From: Polyangia bacterium
GTDB lineage: Bacteria > Myxococcota_A > Polyangia > Nannocystales > Nannocystaceae
Reading direction: 5' to 3'
DNA length: 64,000 bases
Assembly (NCBI GenBank): GCA_030429545.1
Contig: JAUIFF010000001.1
Span: 83,599 to 147,598 of the forward strand
This document shows positions 15,192 through 62,968 of this stretch, one piece after another (the stretch's first letter is position 1; each line of letters starts with the position of its first letter). Below the pieces are notes generated by a model, which did not search any database, was not told the DNA's origin, and saw only the letters and a program-made list of their open reading frames with translations. Made by a program: the position numbers and the translations under genes.

Positions 15192-15245
15192 TCGCCGATT
15201 TTGGAGAAACTCCACGGGCGACTCCACGGGCGACTCCACGGGCGA
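15192..15245. repeat. tandem 13-bp direct repeats (ccacgggcgactc, ~3.5 copies)
   Basis: ctccacgggcgactccacgggcgactccacgggcgactccacggac, read in the intergenic region. Confidence 0.7.
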
Positions 15246-15257
15246 CTCCACGGACTA

Positions 15258-18905: not shown

Positions 18906-20474
18906 CTACTGGACGATCCGCATCTCGTTGGCCGGGTCGCGCAGTGGGAGGAGGTTTTGCGGCTCGGGAACCTTACCCGCGGGGTTGCTGCCGCGATTGA
19001 TGATCTCCCGGGTGGGCGGATAGGTCAGGTCCCAGTCCTCGGCCTTGATGAGTTTGCCGGCCTGGTAGAGCTTGCGGATCCGTTTGACCTTAAACCCCCG
19101 TTTGCCGCGTTGGGCGACCTTGGTCGAACCCGTGCGGAGTTTGGGATCGTCGCGGACCACCGTGTTGTAGGGGAGGACCTCTTCGACCTTGCGCTCAAAT
19201 GCAACCTGGTAGCTGCGTTGGGGTCCGAGCAGTTCAACCTCGACCTTGCCCTGGTGCACGGCCATGTGGACGACCACCGGGAAGTCGTAGGGGTTTTGCA
19301 GTTTCATGTCGATGGCGCCGTAGACCACCGTCGAGTCCAACCCCATGTCGACGTAGCTCGACGGGCGCGAGTGGGGACGCGACGAGGTGAGCTCCAGGCC
19401 GGCGAAAAATGCTGCGGCGTACAGGGTTGAGCTGACCTGGCAAATGCCACCGCCGACCACGTCGACGACTTCGCCCGAGGTAATCCCCGGCGCGTAGCGA
19501 AACCCGGCCTCGGTCGTGCGTGGGCCGACGACATCGTTAAACGAGAACTGCTCGCCGGGCATCAGCACAAACCCGTCGAGCCGGGCGGCACCGACCTTGA
19601 GGTTGTGGGTACGGTCGGCCGAGCGGGCTTCGGTGGAGTAGGGCGTCGAGTAACGGCCGAGGACAATACCGATGTCGAGCTTGTCGGCCAGCGACCCGAG
19701 CGGGTCTTCGACGGGGGGCAGGGCCTGGGTGGCGAGTTCAATTTCCGAGCTGCCGCTGGCGAGGCCCACGGCGACACTCGAAAGCGAGTCGTAGGCCAAC
19801 AGCCCGGTCCCGCGCTCGGCCGGGACCACGCGGCGCGCCTCAAAATCAAACCGGGTGGGCAGTGAGGGTTTTTGTACGGCCGGCACCAATGCAAGTAACT
19901 TTGTAAGTGCAACTTCTTCGTCAAACGCGTAGCCGATGGCGATGTCGACCTGACCCTCGCGGGCGAGGGTACGTTCGCGCAGGTCGGTCAAAAAGTTGCC
20001 CTGGTGACCGACTTCGAGGGCAGCCTCGATCGCAGCTTCGGGGGCCGGCACCGCACCGAGCTCGCGGGCGTTTGCCGGTTGGTTGATATCGCCAGCGTGG
20101 AGCGTGAGCGGACGGTCGAGGCCTGTTTGCGCAAGCTCGCCAGCGAGTTGCTCGAGTTCCGGCCGGGTCAACCCGCCGACATCGTGGCCCGCGAGCTTGA
20201 CCCCGGGGACAACACGCACGTCGTCGACCTGCCCGGTGGCTCCAACGATCGAGGCGGCGGCCCACAACCCGGCACCCGCCATCACGAGGGTTTCGGCGAC
20301 CTTGCCAATCCGGCCCCACGGCAACCGACGGGCGGGCTGGGGTTGCACGTTCGAGGAAGGTTGTGGAGATGCGTCGACCTCCGGAGAAACCTCAGTCGTC
20401 ACCTCGGCTTTCGCCGAGCGGCGGCGGGATCGAAGTTGTGGACGTTTGCTCGGGGCTGTCGCGGGGCGGCTCAT
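18906..20474 (-). CDS. VanW family protein
   Basis: VanW domain segment (GGGICQVSSTLYAAAFFAGLE). N-terminal TM anchor. Confidence 0.8.
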   Translation of the reverse strand: MSRPATAPSKRPQLRSRRRSAKAEVTTEVSPEVDASPQPSSNVQPQPARRLPWGRIGKVAETLVMAGAGLWAAASIVGATGQVDDVRVVPGVKLAGHDVGGLTRPELEQLAGELAQTGLDRPLTLHAGDINQPANARELGAVPAPEAAIEAALEVGHQGNFLTDLRERTLAREGQVDIAIGYAFDEEVALTKLLALVPAVQKPSLPTRFDFEARRVVPAERGTGLLAYDSLSSVAVGLASGSSEIELATQALPPVEDPLGSLADKLDIGIVLGRYSTPYSTEARSADRTHNLKVGAARLDGFVLMPGEQFSFNDVVGPRTTEAGFRYAPGITSGEVVDVVGGGICQVSSTLYAAAFFAGLELTSSRPHSRPSSYVDMGLDSTVVYGAIDMKLQNPYDFPVVVHMAVHQGKVEVELLGPQRSYQVAFERKVEEVLPYNTVVRDDPKLRTGSTKVAQRGKRGFKVKRIRKLYQAGKLIKAEDWDLTYPPTREIINRGSNPAGKVPEPQNLLPLRDPANEMRIVQ

Positions 20475-20630: not shown

Positions 20631-20862
20631 ACAGGTCTAGCTACGTGCATCTGCACGGCGGGTGGCGCTGCGCCACCCAAGCGTCCTTTGCGACACACTT
20701 CACAAGGAAGGCTATTCCAGAATTTCGCTATCCCGCCGGTGCGTTCATACTGCCGACGGGCTGGCGCAACCCCGCGGATCGGAGTTCCGTACGGCAGTAT
20801 GAACGCACCGGCGGGGCGAATTCAGTGAGCCTTCCATATCCCAGGTCGAGGAGTAGACACTT
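20631..20862 (+). ncRNA. candidate structured RNA element, copy 1 (5' of the HU/IHF gene)
   Basis: Shares conserved blocks with 23922-24150. The inverted repeats between the blocks differ between copies but stay complementary. Confidence 0.45.
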
Positions 20863-20977
20863 CCTGTTCCGTCCATCGTTTTCGTGAATCCGTCGCAATT
20901 CTTCAGTGGACCGCCGGTGCTGGGGTTCGCCTTGACAGGCGCGTGCCGGCGGGCGACTCCACGGGGCGGAGAAGTCG

Positions 20978-23024: not shown

Positions 23025-23810
23025 ATGCCCGAGCATGAACTCGCCACGCGCACTTCGGTTACAGCCTACTACTCCCGTAGTCAGCTCTTGATCATCGCCG
23101 AAGGAAAACTCCCGACACCAGATTGGGAGATCGACATCAGCCAAGACCACTCGAGGTCTGAGCTGCCAACTTTCGTGCTCACACGGCGCCCGCGACCAGG
23201 CGATACGTCCAACGATGAGACGCCCTTTCGCTATGGCGAGATCTTTACGATCGGCCGTCCTCCCGACTACATCATGCTGCGCCATGTCGACGGCACCGAC
23301 CGTGTCAATGTCGAGTTTACCCGCGACGATCTCGTCGACATTGTGTTGAGCCTCAGCCTCGAAGACAGCGCCAGCGAGGTGCTTGAGATCCCGTTGAACC
23401 TCGATGCCGATGAGCGGCCACCCCCACCGTCGAAGCCGGTGATGGTCGGGAAGCCAGCGATGGTCGGTCAGCCGGCAACGGTCGGGAAGCCAGCGATGGT
23501 CGGCCAGCGAGCCAACCCGGGGCCAAACAACGGCGGAGGCCTGCAACTGTCGCCCGTCGGCGGTACAGCAACCCTCGGCAGCGACAGCAACCTGACCGAT
23601 ATGGGTGTCCGCTACCGCGAAGCCGTTGGCTATTCCAACAAGCTTTCGTTCGACGAAGCGTTTGCCGATGCCCTCAAGAAATTGCCACCTCCATCGATGA
23701 AGTTCCCCGACATGATGGAGACCGTCGAAGTCGTCCATATCGGCGGCACGTTCGGTGGAATCGCCGGCTTTCATCGGCTCGAAGTGCGGATTCGGGCCTA
23801 CCCAGACTGA
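23025..23810 (+). CDS. hypothetical protein with internal KPAMVGQPATVG tandem repeats
   Basis: GGGAGGA RBS, coding-like codon usage, 18-bp in-frame DNA repeats. The overlapping antisense ORF 22845-23891 is rejected. Confidence 0.45.
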   Translation: MPEHELATRTSVTAYYSRSQLLIIAEGKLPTPDWEIDISQDHSRSELPTFVLTRRPRPGDTSNDETPFRYGEIFTIGRPPDYIMLRHVDGTDRVNVEFTRDDLVDIVLSLSLEDSASEVLEIPLNLDADERPPPPSKPVMVGKPAMVGQPATVGKPAMVGQRANPGPNNGGGLQLSPVGGTATLGSDSNLTDMGVRYREAVGYSNKLSFDEAFADALKKLPPPSMKFPDMMETVEVVHIGGTFGGIAGFHRLEVRIRAYPD

Positions 23811-23921: not shown

Positions 23922-24150
23922 ACAGGTCTAGCTTGTACTTCGGTACGTGATCGGCGTTGCGCCGCTCGAGCAAACTTCATCCCATTCATCACAAGGAAGG
24001 CTATTCCAGAATGTCGCTATCCCGAGAAGTACCCGTAGACGGCGACGGGCTGGAGCAACCTCGCGCATCGAAGTTCCGTACGCCGTCTACGGGTACTTCT
24101 CGGGGCGCATTCAGTGAGCCTTCCATGTCCCAGGTCTTGAGGTAGACTAC
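23922..24150 (+). ncRNA. candidate structured RNA element, copy 2 (paralogue of 20631-20862)
   Basis: Same conserved blocks. Variable helix with compensatory substitutions. Followed by a rho-independent terminator. Confidence 0.45.
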
Positions 24151-24184
24151 TTTCTCGCTACAAATTTTGGACGCTCTCATGCGG

Positions 24185-24228
24185 CCGGCAAAGCATCCCC
24201 CCTAAGAACGCTTTGCCGGTCCTTTTTA
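24185..24228 (+). terminator. rho-independent terminator
   Basis: ccggcaaagc-loop-gctttgccgg followed by tccttttt. Confidence 0.65.
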
Positions 24229-24329
24229 AATGGTTTTGGGCGCGCGGGTTCTTTTGGCCGTGAGACCGGCCCTGAGAAGCTTGCAGTAGGTGACTACAGC
24301 TTCGCTTCTCAGGGCTCGGTTCACGGCCA

Positions 24330-25400
24330 AAAGCCCTCCGCGAATCTTGGTGCGGGGTGTTCGGGAAGCGTAGGCGTTTGGTGTTCGGGAAGCGTAGCGG
24401 GAAGCGCGGGCGTTTTGGTGTTCGGGAAGCGTAGGCGTTTGGTGTTCGGGAAGCGTTTGGTGTTCGGGAAGCGTAGGGTCGCTAGGGTGCGGGTTTGGTG
24501 TTTGGGTAGCGCAGGCGTTTGGGGTAGCGCAGGCGTTTGGGGTTGTCGGGTAGCGCAGGCGTTTGGTGTTCGGGAAGCGTAGGGTCGCTAGGGTTCGGGT
24601 TTGGTGTTTGGGTAGCGCGGGTTCGGGAAGCGTAGGCGTTTGGTGTTCGGAACGCGTAGGCGTTTGGTGTTCGGGAAGCGTAGGCGGTGTTTGGGTAGCG
24701 CAGGCGATGGTTGGGTTGCGCGGGCGTTGGTGTTTGGCGCAGGCGTTTGGTGTTCGGGTTGGGTAGCGCGGGCGTGTTGGGGTAGCGCGGGGCGTTTGGT
24801 CGCGCGTGTTGGGCGTGTTGGGGTAGCGCGTGTTGGGCGTGTTGGGGCGTTTGGTCGGGTGTTGAGTCGCGCGGGCATGTTGGGCTAGCGCGGGTGTTTG
24901 GTCGGGGTTGGGTAGCGCGGGGCGTTTGGTCGCGGTTGGGTAGCGTGGGGTAGCGGAAGTTTGGCCGCAGCGTGGGGTTCGTTTGTAGTGGTTGGGGTAG
25001 CCGACATTGGTCGCAGGGGTGCGGGGTTCGTTTGGGTAGCGTGGGGGGTCGTTTGTAGTGGTTGGGGTAGCCGACATTGGTCGCAGGGTGCGGGGTTCGT
25101 TTGGGTAGCGCCGACGTTTGGCCGCAGGGTGGGGGTTCGTTTGTAGTAGTTGGTAGCGCCGTCGCTTGGTCGCAGGTGCGGGCCTCGTTTTGGGTGATGG
25201 TCGCGGTTGGGTCGCGCCGACGTTTGGTCGCAAGGTGCCGGCTTCGTTTTGGGTAGTGGTTGGGTGGCGTTTGGTCCGGCGGGGTTTCGTGTCGGGTAGC
25301 GCGGAAGTTTGGCCGCAGGGTGGGGTTCATTTGTAGTGGTTGGGTAGCCGACGTTTGGTCGCAGGGGGGCGGGGTTCGTTTGGGTAGCGCCGACGTTCCC
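24330..25400. repeat. ~1.1 kb degenerate G/T-rich tandem repeat (minisatellite-like)
   Basis: Units such as gcgtaggcgtttggtgttcgggaa and ggtagcgccgacgtttggccgcagggtgggggttcgtttgtagtggttg iterated head-to-tail. Strong strand asymmetry. No spacer periodicity. Confidence 0.8.
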
Positions 25401-25691
25401 GACTGGCTGTTGAGGGCCGGCCTCGACTGCTGTGCGACGTACTTCGCAGTTGCCTGTTCTTTTTGTGTGCCCCGGGGGAGCCGCTGGTCGTCGTTGGTCG
25501 GTTGTGCCGGTTTTCTATTGTGTCGGGGCGGACTTGCCTGCGGGCCTTGGTCTTGTTCAGTTGGTTCGTTCGATTGCCTCTGCTGTGAGGCCTGCTTCAC
25601 AGTTGATGGCTTTGGCGGGGATATTTTTACGGTCTGCGAGTTTGATGTACGGTGCACGTCGATCCGCTGCTGCGGTTCGAGGAGCAAGTCT

Positions 25692-26321
25692 GTGAAGCGA
25701 GTCCTGCGGGATGCTAGTCAAGCCTGGAACTTTTTTCGCAGTGGTTTTACCAGCTGGGAAACGACGGCTGCGTTCTTGCCGAGCCAGCGGTTTCTTGTGC
25801 GTACATTGGTTTCGGCGGCCCGCCTCAATGGGGCTCGCAATGTCGTTGAGCTCGGGCCGGGTTTGGGCCATGTCACCTCCAAAATCCTTGCTCGGATGGG
25901 TCACGACTGTCAGCTCTACAGCGTCGAGATCGATCCGGCGATGGTCGAGGCGATGGCGACCAAAGTTACCGATCCGCGACTTCACGTGATCGAAGGCGAT
26001 GCCGCCAAACTGCCGCAATTGCTCGAGCAGGCTGGTTGTACCGGGCCGGTCGACGCGGTGATTTCATCCCTCGGGATGAGCCTGTTGCCGCCGGAGGTGC
26101 GTGAGTCGATCTTTACGGGGATCAAAACGGTGCTCGCCCCTGGCAAGCCCTATGTGCAATACGCCTACTTCCATGCTCGGGTGATTGTGTGGACGGGCTC
26201 CCGTGGCTTTAGCCAGTTTAATATCCGTGAACACCTCGCGCCCCACTTTGGCCAAATGCAGCGCCAACTGGTGTTTGCCAACGTGCCTCCGGCCGCGGTT
26301 TATACCTGCAGCAACAGCTGA
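25692..26321 (+). CDS. class I SAM-dependent methyltransferase (phospholipid N-methyltransferase / rRNA adenine dimethylase-like fold)
   Basis: VELGPGLG SAM-binding motif I. GTG start proposed at 25692 because upstream sequence is repeat-derived. Confidence 0.65.
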   Translation: MKRVLRDASQAWNFFRSGFTSWETTAAFLPSQRFLVRTLVSAARLNGARNVVELGPGLGHVTSKILARMGHDCQLYSVEIDPAMVEAMATKVTDPRLHVIEGDAAKLPQLLEQAGCTGPVDAVISSLGMSLLPPEVRESIFTGIKTVLAPGKPYVQYAYFHARVIVWTGSRGFSQFNIREHLAPHFGQMQRQLVFANVPPAAVYTCSNS

Positions 26322-34721: not shown

Positions 34722-35588
34722 CTACTCGCAGTGAATCAGCACGGTCACACCCGGGCATGAGTTGCCGCCACCTCCGGCAATGTCGATGTCGGCACCTCCG
34801 GTGTAGGGCTCGGGGCCGGCACACCAGGTGAACGGGTCTTCCCACGTGCCGCCGGTGACAAGCCCCAAGTAGCCGCCGCCATAACTCAGCCAAACGTCCG
34901 CGTCGTAGTCGACACTGTTGTTGTGGTAGGTGATTTGCAAGGTCTCGTCGGCCGGAACCCACAACTCCATGGGGTCGGCCGAGACGTTGCAAAAGTTGTC
35001 GATATAGATGTCGACGGTGGCAAACGGATCAAACCCGCCAGTGTCCGAGTCGCTCGTGTCTGAGTCCGTTTGGCTGTCTGTGCCCGAGGTTTCGGAGTCG
35101 GTTGTGTCCGTGTCGGTGGTGCCATCGGTGTCGGTGGCCGAGTCCGACTCAGACCCGCCCGTTGCGTCGGAGTCGGTTGCGTCGGAATCGGTTGCGTCGG
35201 AATCGGTTGCGTCGGATTCGGTTGCGTCGGAGTCAGTTGAGTCGGAGCCAGTTGCGTCGGAATCGGTCGAGTCGGAGTCGCTTGAGTCAGAGTCGCTTGT
35301 GGGGCCACCGGTGAGGGAAACGCAGGAGCACGACCATTCGCCATTGATACACATGATGTCTGAGCACGACCAGTCGGTATCCGAGAAGCAGTTGCTGTCG
35401 AACAGCTCGCCACACTCGCCCGCGGTCCCGCTTCCCGTTGCTGCCGTTGTCTCGGTTGCGCTGCCGCCTTGTGTCGCTGTGGTGATAGTTCCGTCGGTTG
35501 TCGAGGTGTTGGCATCACCACATCCACAAAACAGGACCGAGCAGAACACAAGTACTGGAACAGGGCGCAGCATCGCTCGCATATACAC
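34722..35588 (-). CDS. secreted lipoprotein with (DSDAT)n acidic repeat linker
   Basis: Lipobox LFCGCG. 15-bp tandem DNA repeats encode DSDATDSDAT.... Confidence 0.55.
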   Translation of the reverse strand: MYMRAMLRPVPVLVFCSVLFCGCGDANTSTTDGTITTATQGGSATETTAATGSGTAGECGELFDSNCFSDTDWSCSDIMCINGEWSCSCVSLTGGPTSDSDSSDSDSTDSDATGSDSTDSDATESDATDSDATDSDATDSDATGGSESDSATDTDGTTDTDTTDSETSGTDSQTDSDTSDSDTGGFDPFATVDIYIDNFCNVSADPMELWVPADETLQITYHNNSVDYDADVWLSYGGGYLGLVTGGTWEDPFTWCAGPEPYTGGADIDIAGGGGNSCPGVTVLIHCE

Positions 35589-40661: not shown

Positions 40662-42335
40662 TCAAGAGGTCGACTCTGGCGCGAATTTAAGGTTGTTGAG
40701 CTCAAAGCGGATTTTAGCGACCAACCACCAGGGGAGGTAAATCCCGAGCGTGAGCGGGATGAGGATCGCCTTGAGAGCGAGGACAAACAGTTGCCCACCA
40801 GTGCCGTTGAACGAGGCAACCCGGGTCCCGGAGGCGAAAGTGAGCCGGGTGTGGCCCCAAAAAAACTTCCGCAGGCTGACACCAAACCACGCGAAGTAGA
40901 TCCCCGCGGTGATCATCGATAGGAACATGCCCTTAAGCGCAGTCACAAACAGCTTGCCACCGGTGCCAGCGAAATCGAGTTGGCCGACGACCTCGCTGTC
41001 GTTTTCGATGACTTGTATATGCGTGTACAACAGTTTTCGCAGCGAGCACTGAAACCATGCCCCATAGATCCCCGCGGTGATGGCCGTGAGTAGGCCTCCG
41101 AGGATCAGCGGGCCGATGAGATCGCCACCGGTAGCGGAAAACCGCAGGCGGTAGCGGGTGCCGTCTCCAGCTGTAAATACAAGGTTGTTGAGCGACCAGC
41201 GGATGATGCCGGCGATGTACCAGGCACCGTATATTCCGGCTGTCAGCGGTACCAGGATGCCCTTGAGCATGAGGACGAACAGTTGGCCGCCGGTCCCCTC
41301 GAACGCCACCGTCATGGGGCCACGCGCGGTGGGTTCGACAACCGTGCGCTCGGCCTCGTAACGCCGCGCTCGGACAGACAGCCACGGCGCGTAGATCCCA
41401 GCTGTCGGGATGCACAGCAGTGCGTGTGGCAGCAGAGTGCGGAGCATCTCCCCGCCGGAACCGCGAAAGTCGACGCCGACAGGTTCCGTACTCGGGGCAG
41501 GTGCCGGGGTCGGAGCCGGGGCCATGCGTTGTTCGGGTGGGGCGATACCTGTGGCTGCAAGCGCAGGGTCGTCGGTCCGTTGCATCGACACACCCCCGAC
41601 AGGTGTTTGTACCCCGACCGGACCGCCGACAAGCGGCGAAGCCGGGGCAGCCGGGGCGGGGTTCGAGACGGCGAGTTTTGGCGCGCTCTCAGAACCGCCG
41701 ACAGGAGTGATACTCGCGGGGTCCTTTGTAGTTACATCTGGTTGCGGGGTGGCACTTGGCGTCGCTGCGTCACCCATCGGTGGGCGCACGCCACCCCCGG
41801 GCGGAGGAGCTCCACCCATCGGCGGACGCATGCCACCCCCGGGCGGGGGAGCACCACCCATCGGCGGACGCATGCCACCCCCGGGCGGGGGAGCACCACC
41901 CATCGGCGGACGCATGCCACCCCCGGGCGGGGGAGCACCACCCATCGGCATCCCACCCATCGACGGAGCTCCAAGTCCAATCATTGTTCTGCCGCCACCA
42001 AATGCTTGGCTCGGCCCTTTGATCTCACGTACGACCAGGGTTGTTTGGCCACATATAAAGGCCTGCCCCGGGTTCACAGCAAACTGTGGTGTGCGCGCGC
42101 CATTGAAGATCACGCCGTTGGTGCTGCCTAGGTCCTTGACGGTGAGCTTGCCATTGACGAACTGCAACTCGGCATGCCGTCCCGAGGACTGATTGTCGCC
42201 TAAGACAATATCCCCGGACTCACGGCCAATCACGACGAGCCGCTCGGTGAACTTCCGTGTTTCAGCAGGTTTATCGGAATATTTGATTTCGAGGACGTAG
42301 TACGACTCGGACACGCAGCGCCTCCACTTGAGCAC
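40662..42335 (-). CDS. FHA domain protein fused to Pro/Gly-rich repeats and a C-terminal DUF898 (YjgN-like) membrane repeat domain
   Basis: N-terminal FHA (GRESGDIVL...SSGRHAEL...STNGVIFNG). (GGAPPPGGGMRPPM)x4. Four copies of the F.GTGG.LF....LKG......TAGIY..W membrane repeat. Confidence 0.7.
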   Translation of the reverse strand: MLKWRRCVSESYYVLEIKYSDKPAETRKFTERLVVIGRESGDIVLGDNQSSGRHAELQFVNGKLTVKDLGSTNGVIFNGARTPQFAVNPGQAFICGQTTLVVREIKGPSQAFGGGRTMIGLGAPSMGGMPMGGAPPPGGGMRPPMGGAPPPGGGMRPPMGGAPPPGGGMRPPMGGAPPPGGGVRPPMGDAATPSATPQPDVTTKDPASITPVGGSESAPKLAVSNPAPAAPASPLVGGPVGVQTPVGGVSMQRTDDPALAATGIAPPEQRMAPAPTPAPAPSTEPVGVDFRGSGGEMLRTLLPHALLCIPTAGIYAPWLSVRARRYEAERTVVEPTARGPMTVAFEGTGGQLFVLMLKGILVPLTAGIYGAWYIAGIIRWSLNNLVFTAGDGTRYRLRFSATGGDLIGPLILGGLLTAITAGIYGAWFQCSLRKLLYTHIQVIENDSEVVGQLDFAGTGGKLFVTALKGMFLSMITAGIYFAWFGVSLRKFFWGHTRLTFASGTRVASFNGTGGQLFVLALKAILIPLTLGIYLPWWLVAKIRFELNNLKFAPESTS

Positions 42336-62611: not shown

Positions 62612-62968
62612 CTACCAGGATCCGTGAGAACCGTGGGAGCCGTGGGAGCCGTGGGAGCCGTGGGAGCCGTGGGAACCGTGGGAGCCGTGAGACCCGTGGG
62701 AGCCGTGAGACCCGTGGGAGCCGTGAGACCCGTGAGACCCGTGAGATCCGTGAGACCCGTGAGACCCGTGAGAACCATGCGAACAGTGGCCCGAGTCCCC
62801 AGGCCCTACCATGACCGTGGTCAGTGACATACTCGCCGGCCCAGCATCGGCGTAGAGTCGGGCCTTGTCGGATATTTCCCGCTGGCCCTTGCTCAGCACT
62901 GGTCCCTTGCGGGTGAACGTCGGGAGAGCGTTCAGATCGTCGGTTGCCTTTCCATCACTCTTCGCCAT
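62612..62968 (-). CDS. His-Gly-Ser repeat precursor peptide (HxsA-like; ~60-aa leader + (HGS)x18)
   Basis: MAKSDGKATDDLNALPTFTRKGPVLSKGQREISDKARLYADAGPASMSLTTVMVGPGDSGHCSHGSHGSH...GSW. Encoded by 9-bp tandem repeats (GGCTCCCAC on the coding strand). GAGGA RBS 7 nt upstream. Confidence 0.7.
   Translation of the reverse strand: MAKSDGKATDDLNALPTFTRKGPVLSKGQREISDKARLYADAGPASMSLTTVMVGPGDSGHCSHGSHGSHGSHGSHGSHGSHGSHGSHGSHGSHGSHGSHGSHGSHGSHGSHGSHGSW

Follow-up and report, generated by a model that had tools for sequence, protein, structure and literature searches.

The stretch of DNA studied here, in the following called the window, comprises 64,000 nucleotides of a Polyangia bacterium (assembly GCA_030429545.1, contig JAUIFF010000001.1) and contains a G/T-rich degenerate tandem array on the plus strand at 24340-25398. 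This tract is a bacterial intergenic minisatellite that is unusual in its length, degeneracy and strand skew. It is non-coding and forms part of a lineage-specific insertion of approximately 1.4 kb (24232-25636, plus strand), which lies between the terminator of a conserved structured small RNA (sRNA) and the gene for a lipid-type S-adenosylmethionine (SAM) methyltransferase. In a relative with 90% identity in the methyltransferase this site is empty, and between near-identical strains the insertion is a local hotspot of change. With fair though far from full confidence we regard the tract as a young and probably neutral minisatellite that grew by slippage or unequal recombination and inherited its strand skew from the sequence that seeded it.

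Composition, units and coding potential of the array

A preliminary description of this DNA had reported a large, strand-asymmetric minisatellite without spacers at 24330-25400. Head-to-tail repeats are present there and the description holds in its essentials, except that the array proper was trimmed to 24340-25398 and that the skew runs on to approximately 25636. Counting the bases of 24330-25400 gave 510 G, 296 T, 173 C and 92 A, with a GC skew of approximately +0.55 and an AT skew of -0.5 to -0.6. On the top strand the G+T fraction of the tract was 0.758, reaching 0.80 in the best 300-nt segment, compared to a mean of 0.508 (standard deviation 0.038) and a maximum of 0.64 in the remainder of the window. 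Among 80 loci from other bacteria, amounting to 1.27 Mb, we found no 400-nt segment with at least 72% G+T or C+A.

Tandem Repeats Finder returned overlapping periods of 18, 19, 20, 24, 28, 37, 40, 47, 49, 70 and 106 nt. The consensus of the approximately 24-nt unit is CGGGAAGCGTAGGCGTTTGGTGTT, and the 21-mer GCGTTTGGTGTTCGGGAAGCG occurs 10 times with at most 3 mismatches, compared to 0 occurrences in shuffled sequences. Units were delimited by cutting at the recurrent anchor GG[TA]AGC[GC]. This yielded 28 directly abutting pieces, most of them 10-48 nt long and a few longer at places where the anchor has decayed; no unique spacers between the units were found in this segmentation. The array is made of zones that differ in unit type and homogeneity, with units of about 24 nt at 24340-24700, of 19-28 nt at 24700-24950 and of 40, 48 and 70 nt at 24950-25398. 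The core motifs GG(T/A)AGCG and GTTTGG are common to the zones. Identical blocks of 29-40 nt recur within the array, offset by 61, 106, 70 and 279 bp, and we read them as marks of recent segmental duplication. The genome-wide search for the unit that had been proposed earlier was carried out over the other 62 kb of the window and over viral contigs: the units are absent from the former, and the latter provided one chance match to the units, located in a GCG-trinucleotide coding repeat, and none to a 19-mer. The tract has the head-to-tail tandem units of about 10-100 bp and the position outside coding sequence, with intact genes on either side, that are properties of a minisatellite.

The minus strand of the tract contains open reading frames (ORFs) of 401 aa (24482-25687) and 335 aa (24226-25233), and the third frame is nearly open as well. 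Since a C/A-rich strand can hardly form stop codons, composition accounts for all three frames. As had been remarked before, the region produces only low-complexity translations. Taken at face value, the long frames could encode a disordered Pro/Thr/Asn-rich repeat protein. However, codon signal and periodicity are missing. The GC contents of the three codon positions are flat (0.62-0.65) in the six frames of the tract, compared to about 0.65, 0.46 and 0.75 in the genes of the window; the 3-periodicity index is 0.72 in the tract and 5.6-21 in these genes; and the codon log-likelihood from a model trained on the window genes is negative in all six frames. Most of the Tandem Repeats Finder periods as well as the duplication offsets of 61, 70 and 106 bp are not multiples of 3, and the indels with respect to a strain of about 99% identity (4, 1, 1, 1, 9 and 1 bp) break the frame. 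No Pfam domains were found in the ORFs of the tract. Homologues were absent for the 401-aa ORF in a set of 5.8 billion proteins and for the 335-aa ORF in one of 1.84 billion representative proteins, and in neither case was even a self-copy called. The tract thus lacks the codon periodicity, the frame conservation and the homologues of a Pro/Thr-rich repeat protein, and the minus-strand protein, to which we assign next to no probability, is essentially refuted.

The tract had also been considered as an array of binding sites. This idea found no support, given that the motifs show no enrichment in other parts of the window and that no sigma-54 promoter is nearby. For a sigma-54 enhancer array in particular, 0 sigma-54 promoters were found in 24232-25691 and the count over the whole window was at chance. 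A Chi-like or uptake-type motif was rejected, the 6- to 8-mers of the tract being neither over-represented nor strand-skewed in the remaining window. Likewise, an array of small terminators or sRNA units was rejected with 4 terminator-like sites compared to 6.0 expected in shuffles. The tract gave no Rfam match at the gathering score or at E-values up to 1, and its RNA folds with no excess structure over shuffled sequences (z = -0.4 for the plus and -1.2 for the minus strand). It does not have the properties of a structured or sponge RNA, be it of the Csr/Rsm type or of another Rfam family.

The insertion in relatives and strains

Relatives were reached by synteny through homologues of a 261-aa protein, whose gene (23025-23810) precedes the sRNA. 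These homologues place the organism among Nannocystaceae-like Myxococcota. Among the listed matches to the Pyr_redox protein in a scan of genome collections there were only distant relatives, with at most 74% identity. The relative L092 (GCA_964621785.1), in which the flanking protein is 82% identical, has exactly the same gene order, and only about 75 bp separate its sRNA terminator from its methyltransferase start. Homology between the window and L092 stops at the T-run of the terminator (about 24231) and resumes at about 25637 (GCGAGTTTGATGTA), which corresponds to L092 position 11166. Therefore 24232-25636 represents an insertion of about 1.4 kb relative to L092, which begins right after the T-run and stands in place of approximately 20 bp of spacer present in L092. 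A palindrome, the array and an A-poor tail, the three parts of the insertion, are all missing together from the orthologous L092 site. The more distant relatives L093 (68%) and L097 (64%) possess the same sRNA and terminator, likewise not followed by a G/T tract.

The left edge of the insertion is a near-perfect palindrome of 102 nt at 24241-24342, to which no strand is assigned. It was detected as an inverted repeat and by folding of the DNA (-44.1 kcal/mol, z = -9.6), and consists of 30-nt arms with 87% complementarity plus an inner stem. A role of this hairpin as a terminator was rejected in both directions, because on either strand the T-run comes ahead of the stem. On the right, the array is followed by the A-poor tail of 238 bp (25399-25636, plus strand; 68% G+T), in which the skew continues without repeats. 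Its likeness to the array is no more than the composition predicts. The tail contains a hypervariable patch at about 25439-25600 and the sole sigma-70-like promoter match of the region (25596-25625), which points to the methyltransferase gene. A weak inverted repeat (24262-24280 and 25406-25424, 15/19 matches) flanks the array, and TTTTTA is found at both junctions of the insertion, where it is of low complexity and part of the terminator T-run. An invertible segment between the two arms of the inverted repeat was rejected, since the right-hand contigs of short-read assemblies pass unbranched through 25406-25424 into the array. A derivation of the units from the adjacent sRNA, from the flanking sequence or from the ancestral spacer was rejected as well; local alignments did not exceed those of shuffles and blastn found zero seeds.

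Variation between strains was assessed on Logan contigs, which are Illumina-based, from five runs. One of these, SRR24075713 (L007), represents a strain of about 99% identity and allowed a direct comparison. Within the 340 bp of the array covered in this strain we found 3 indels (4, 1 and 1 bp) and 0 substitutions, and within the 238 bp of the tail 9 substitutions and 3 indels. The adjacent coding sequences, i.e. those of the 261-aa protein (786 bp), of the methyltransferase (630 bp) and of FadL (1503 bp), had 0 substitutions. The variable patch at 25439-25600 reflects either a hotspot of mutation or recombination over a tiny stretch.

The contigs of all five runs stop at 24272, inside the palindrome, and restart at 25059 in the strain of about 99% identity or at 25369 in one identical strain and one other. 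Short reads thus support 25059-25398 in the former and 25369 onward in the identical strain. The restart at 25059 is what a k=31 graph predicts from a 40-nt repeat at 24979 and 25049, and therefore this strain holds the upstream copy too. Position 25369 is where one copy of a 29-nt direct repeat within the array (25090/25369) begins; judged from the contig ends, the restart there fits, as a hint, a co-existing variant with a 279-bp deletion under a k=31 graph. For the stop at 24272, k=31 implies a path that starts at about 24243, within 2 nt of the palindrome start at 24241. One could suspect an assembly artefact in the interior of the array, i.e. a repeat that was mis-expanded or collapsed in the long-read assembly: no independent contig extends over 24273-25058, and an exact lookup of an internal 96-aa ORF gave no match. 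Against this, the right 340 bp of the array are reproduced by Illumina-based contigs of two strains, the start of the L007 contig is that expected when the upstream repeat copy is present, and breaks on both sides in every sample indicate that something unassemblable truly lies between. An artefact is therefore very unlikely. The tract accounts for the break of every short-read assembly of this organism at the locus.

Origin of the array and competing explanations

Formation of the minisatellite would have started with a G/T-rich seed that was amplified by replication slippage and by unequal recombination between short direct repeats (GGTAGCG and GTTTGG). Later, blocks of several units would have been copied with offsets of 61, 70, 106 and 279 bp, and point mutation would then have eroded them. 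Amplification, block duplication and decay together would explain the mixed unit lengths and the zones of unequal homogeneity. The strand asymmetry would have been carried over from the amplified seed and not selected. Most likely the array is without sequence-specific function, and its main effect would be passive, in that it separates the methyltransferase gene by 1.4 kb from the sRNA terminator and makes for a spot prone to recombination and indels, which cannot be assembled from short reads. The locus provides a clean case in which a kilobase of repetitive, non-coding sequence has arisen between two conserved features over a short evolutionary distance.

A number of observations weigh against this explanation. 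The seed was not found, and between the ancestral-type spacer and the array there is no significant similarity. The G/T skew reaches into the non-repetitive tail, which amplification of a single seed leaves unexplained. The length differences seen between strains are small indels in the only comparable 340 bp of the array, and the interior at 24273-25058 rests on one assembly. No 31-mer repeated within the window accounts for the break at 24272. As judged from the contig ends, these stops suggest that the palindrome recurs elsewhere in the genome or that variants co-exist, and given the stops the insertion may be more than a local expansion. Furthermore, bacteria usually delete useless DNA. 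An insertion of 1.4 kb that is common to strains up to 1.4% diverged could mean that it is retained.

The whole insertion might instead be a non-autonomous mobile element, i.e. a multi-copy, BrickBuilt-like element of the MITE type (miniature inverted-repeat transposable element) that landed after the sRNA terminator. The palindrome would then be its leader, the array its internal minisatellite and the A-poor stretch its tail. The joint absence of the three parts from the L092 site agrees with such an element, and the end of five contigs at 24272 points to a repeated sequence from about 24243, near the start of the palindrome. That composite elements of this type exist is proven by BrickBuilt (PMC4596501). 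The inverted repeat around the array and the TTTTTA at both junctions could be cited in favour as well, but for 1.5 kb of such composition both matches are no better than chance. Moreover, neither the palindrome nor the units occur again in the other 62 kb of the window. A search with the palindrome pattern in Joint Genome Institute (JGI) metagenome contigs returned 11 hairpins, all of them unrelated, and the palindrome was not found in viral contigs. Protein databases hold no ORF-level trace of further copies, and there is no transposase nearby. On balance we consider a mobile element unlikely, if still worth bearing in mind.

Another candidate, predicted from the base composition, is a selected cis-acting transcriptional insulator between the sRNA and the methyltransferase genes. 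On the plus strand, read-through from the sRNA would produce a G-rich RNA that may form R-loops or G-quadruplexes and stall the polymerase before the methyltransferase gene. On the minus strand, a C-rich, G-poor and unstructured RNA may load Rho, such that antisense transcription would be halted before the sRNA gene. The tract has 47.6% G over 1.07 kb, and 69 G-runs of at least 3 nt stand against 1 C-run. It contains 4 G-quadruplex motifs with loops of up to 7 nt and 6 with loops of up to 12 nt, all on the plus strand. Such a density of G-runs on one strand is that of a tract prone to G-quadruplexes or R-loops by sequence alone, and the earlier suggestion of a G-rich, structure-forming tract is borne out as a potential on paper. 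The minus-strand RNA is C-rich with a C/G ratio of about 3 and only weakly structured (-156 kcal/mol for 991 nt compared to -355 kcal/mol for the plus strand). The position directly past the terminator and ahead of the gene, as well as a skew that spans the whole insertion including the non-repetitive tail, would suit an insulator too. However, the close relative L092 copes with about 75 bp and no tract, the sequence of the tract evolves fast and is not conserved, and amplification of a G/T-rich unit would trivially give the same composition, so that we judge selection for insulation to be rather improbable. A similarly low probability applies to palindrome, minisatellite and tail forming a composite element new in Nannocystaceae, which would be either a mobile multi-copy element targeting sRNA 3' ends or a selected insulator that acts by R-loops and Rho loading downstream of a highly expressed sRNA. 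If an insulator or a mobile element were true, it would be a new type of cis-element or a MITE in a phylum whose repeats have so far been little catalogued. A phase-variable or contingency locus, in which the repeat number would switch the methyltransferase on and off, could draw on the indel-prone nature of the array between strains, on its location upstream of the gene and on the promoter-like site in the insertion tail. Yet the array stops at 25398, which leaves 293 bp to the start codon at 25692 and approximately 200 bp to the only promoter-like match (25596-25625). It lies neither inside an ORF nor between -35 and -10 elements, and gain or loss of units would alter neither the frame nor the promoter spacing. 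The methyltransferase is moreover intact and identical among strains, and the array has long, degenerate units that do not resemble contingency repeats. Switching by repeat number thus has a very slim chance. The previous proposal of a recombinogenic or phase-variable locus survives in its first part, as a hotspot of variation between near-identical strains, and fails in its second, for which the geometry is lacking.

Flanking genes and comparison with known systems

The sRNA in front of the insertion (23925-24231, plus strand, about 300 nt) is copy 2 of a conserved structured RNA, of which a diverged second copy is found at about 20640-20900 on the same strand. Its alignment with L092, L093 and L097 supports 79 predicted pairs. 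Compensatory changes are seen in 15 of these, mostly in a variable apical stem, within a rod-like fold containing internal loops. It ends in an intrinsic terminator with stem arms at 24185-24194 and 24210-24219 followed by the T-run. A comparison with Rfam provided no family, only spurious matches to microRNA hairpins. In all three relatives the sRNA is kept downstream of the gene for the 261-aa protein. This protein, whose homologues range from 238 to 283 aa in length, contains KP(A/V)MVG-type repeats encoded by 4 copies of an 18-bp repeat at 23432-23503. The window upstream of 22956 gives no alignment with the first 467 bp of the corresponding contig of SRR15635857 (L004). Ahead of the gene for the 261-aa protein this points to a rearrangement or another neighbour in that sample.

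The methyltransferase gene (25692-26321, plus strand) starts at GTG 25692, 293 bp beyond the array end, and encodes 209 aa. The protein matches Pfam Methyltransf_25 and, over residues 8-206 and below the curated cut-offs, an OlsG/PmtA-like NCBIfam model; profile comparison shows its resemblance to ornithine-lipid and phospholipid N-methyltransferases. The L092 orthologue is identical at 90% of all 209 residues and at each of the first 40. The N-terminus, which had been described as eaten by the repeat, is thus in place, and judged by its orthologue the gene is intact. An alternative ORF of 353 aa that extends back into the repeat is best taken as an artefact of composition, because the 209-aa GTG start is backed by the orthologue and the profile matches. 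Exact-protein lookups of the 353-aa and the 209-aa versions gave no match. Public gene calls on the short-read contigs hold a methyltransferase of only 141 aa (ATG 25896), in which the SAM-binding motif is cut off. The neighbourhood of the gene is lipid-related, with FadL, a ceramidase, a fatty-acid desaturase, an acyltransferase and a DUF1295 protein. Together with the long minus-strand frames of the tract, the 353-aa ORF calls for caution with frames that are opened by composition.

Further tandem repeats of the window are found at 41771-41949 (42 bp x 4.3, 96% identity), 62622-62773 (9/18 bp x 17), 35161-35299 (15 bp x 9.3) and 15209-15253 (12 bp x 3.8). These four are probably in-frame coding repeats, because all their periods are multiples of 3. 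A C+A-rich stretch of L092 (about 19251-19550; 300 nt, 69% C+A) falls within an ORF of 467 aa that has no Pfam domains; it is probably coding sequence of low complexity and is unrelated to the tract.

An element similar in outline to the insertion is BrickBuilt, a MITE of Porphyromonas gingivalis with a 23-nt minisatellite, 19 copies per genome and defined inverted-repeat ends (PMC4596501). Both have spacerless tandem units of about 23-24 nt flanked by a non-repeat leader and tail, and both are strictly intergenic, near gene starts, with promoter-like sequence in a flank (PMC4596501). The insertion differs in that one copy is visible in the 64-kb window and that its terminal inverted repeats are at chance level. 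With arrays of clustered regularly interspaced short palindromic repeats (CRISPR) the tract shares short motifs that recur regularly in an intergenic region. However, it has no unique spacers of similar length between conserved repeats; its degenerate units abut and its repeats are non-palindromic. The class-switch regions of mammalian immunoglobulin genes are degenerate tandem repeats on the kilobase scale, with units of about 20-50 bp and a G-rich non-template strand. The tract resembles them in physical properties only, organism and context being wholly different, and no family membership is implied. Intergenic minisatellite or variable number tandem repeat (VNTR) loci are known from bacteria, an example being the mycobacterial interspersed repetitive unit (MIRU)-VNTR loci of Mycobacterium tuberculosis. 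As in these loci, the head-to-tail units of the tract are tens of bp long, non-coding and variable between strains, with no demonstrated function and an origin, here inferred, by slippage or unequal recombination; the tract is a candidate strain-typing locus for this uncultured Nannocystaceae-like lineage. It differs from them in being much longer (about 1.06 kb with roughly 28 to 45 units, depending on the cuts) and far more degenerate (units of 10-48 nt and more), in its extreme G/T strand skew, and in its location within a larger insertion that also comprises a 102-nt palindrome and a skewed tail.

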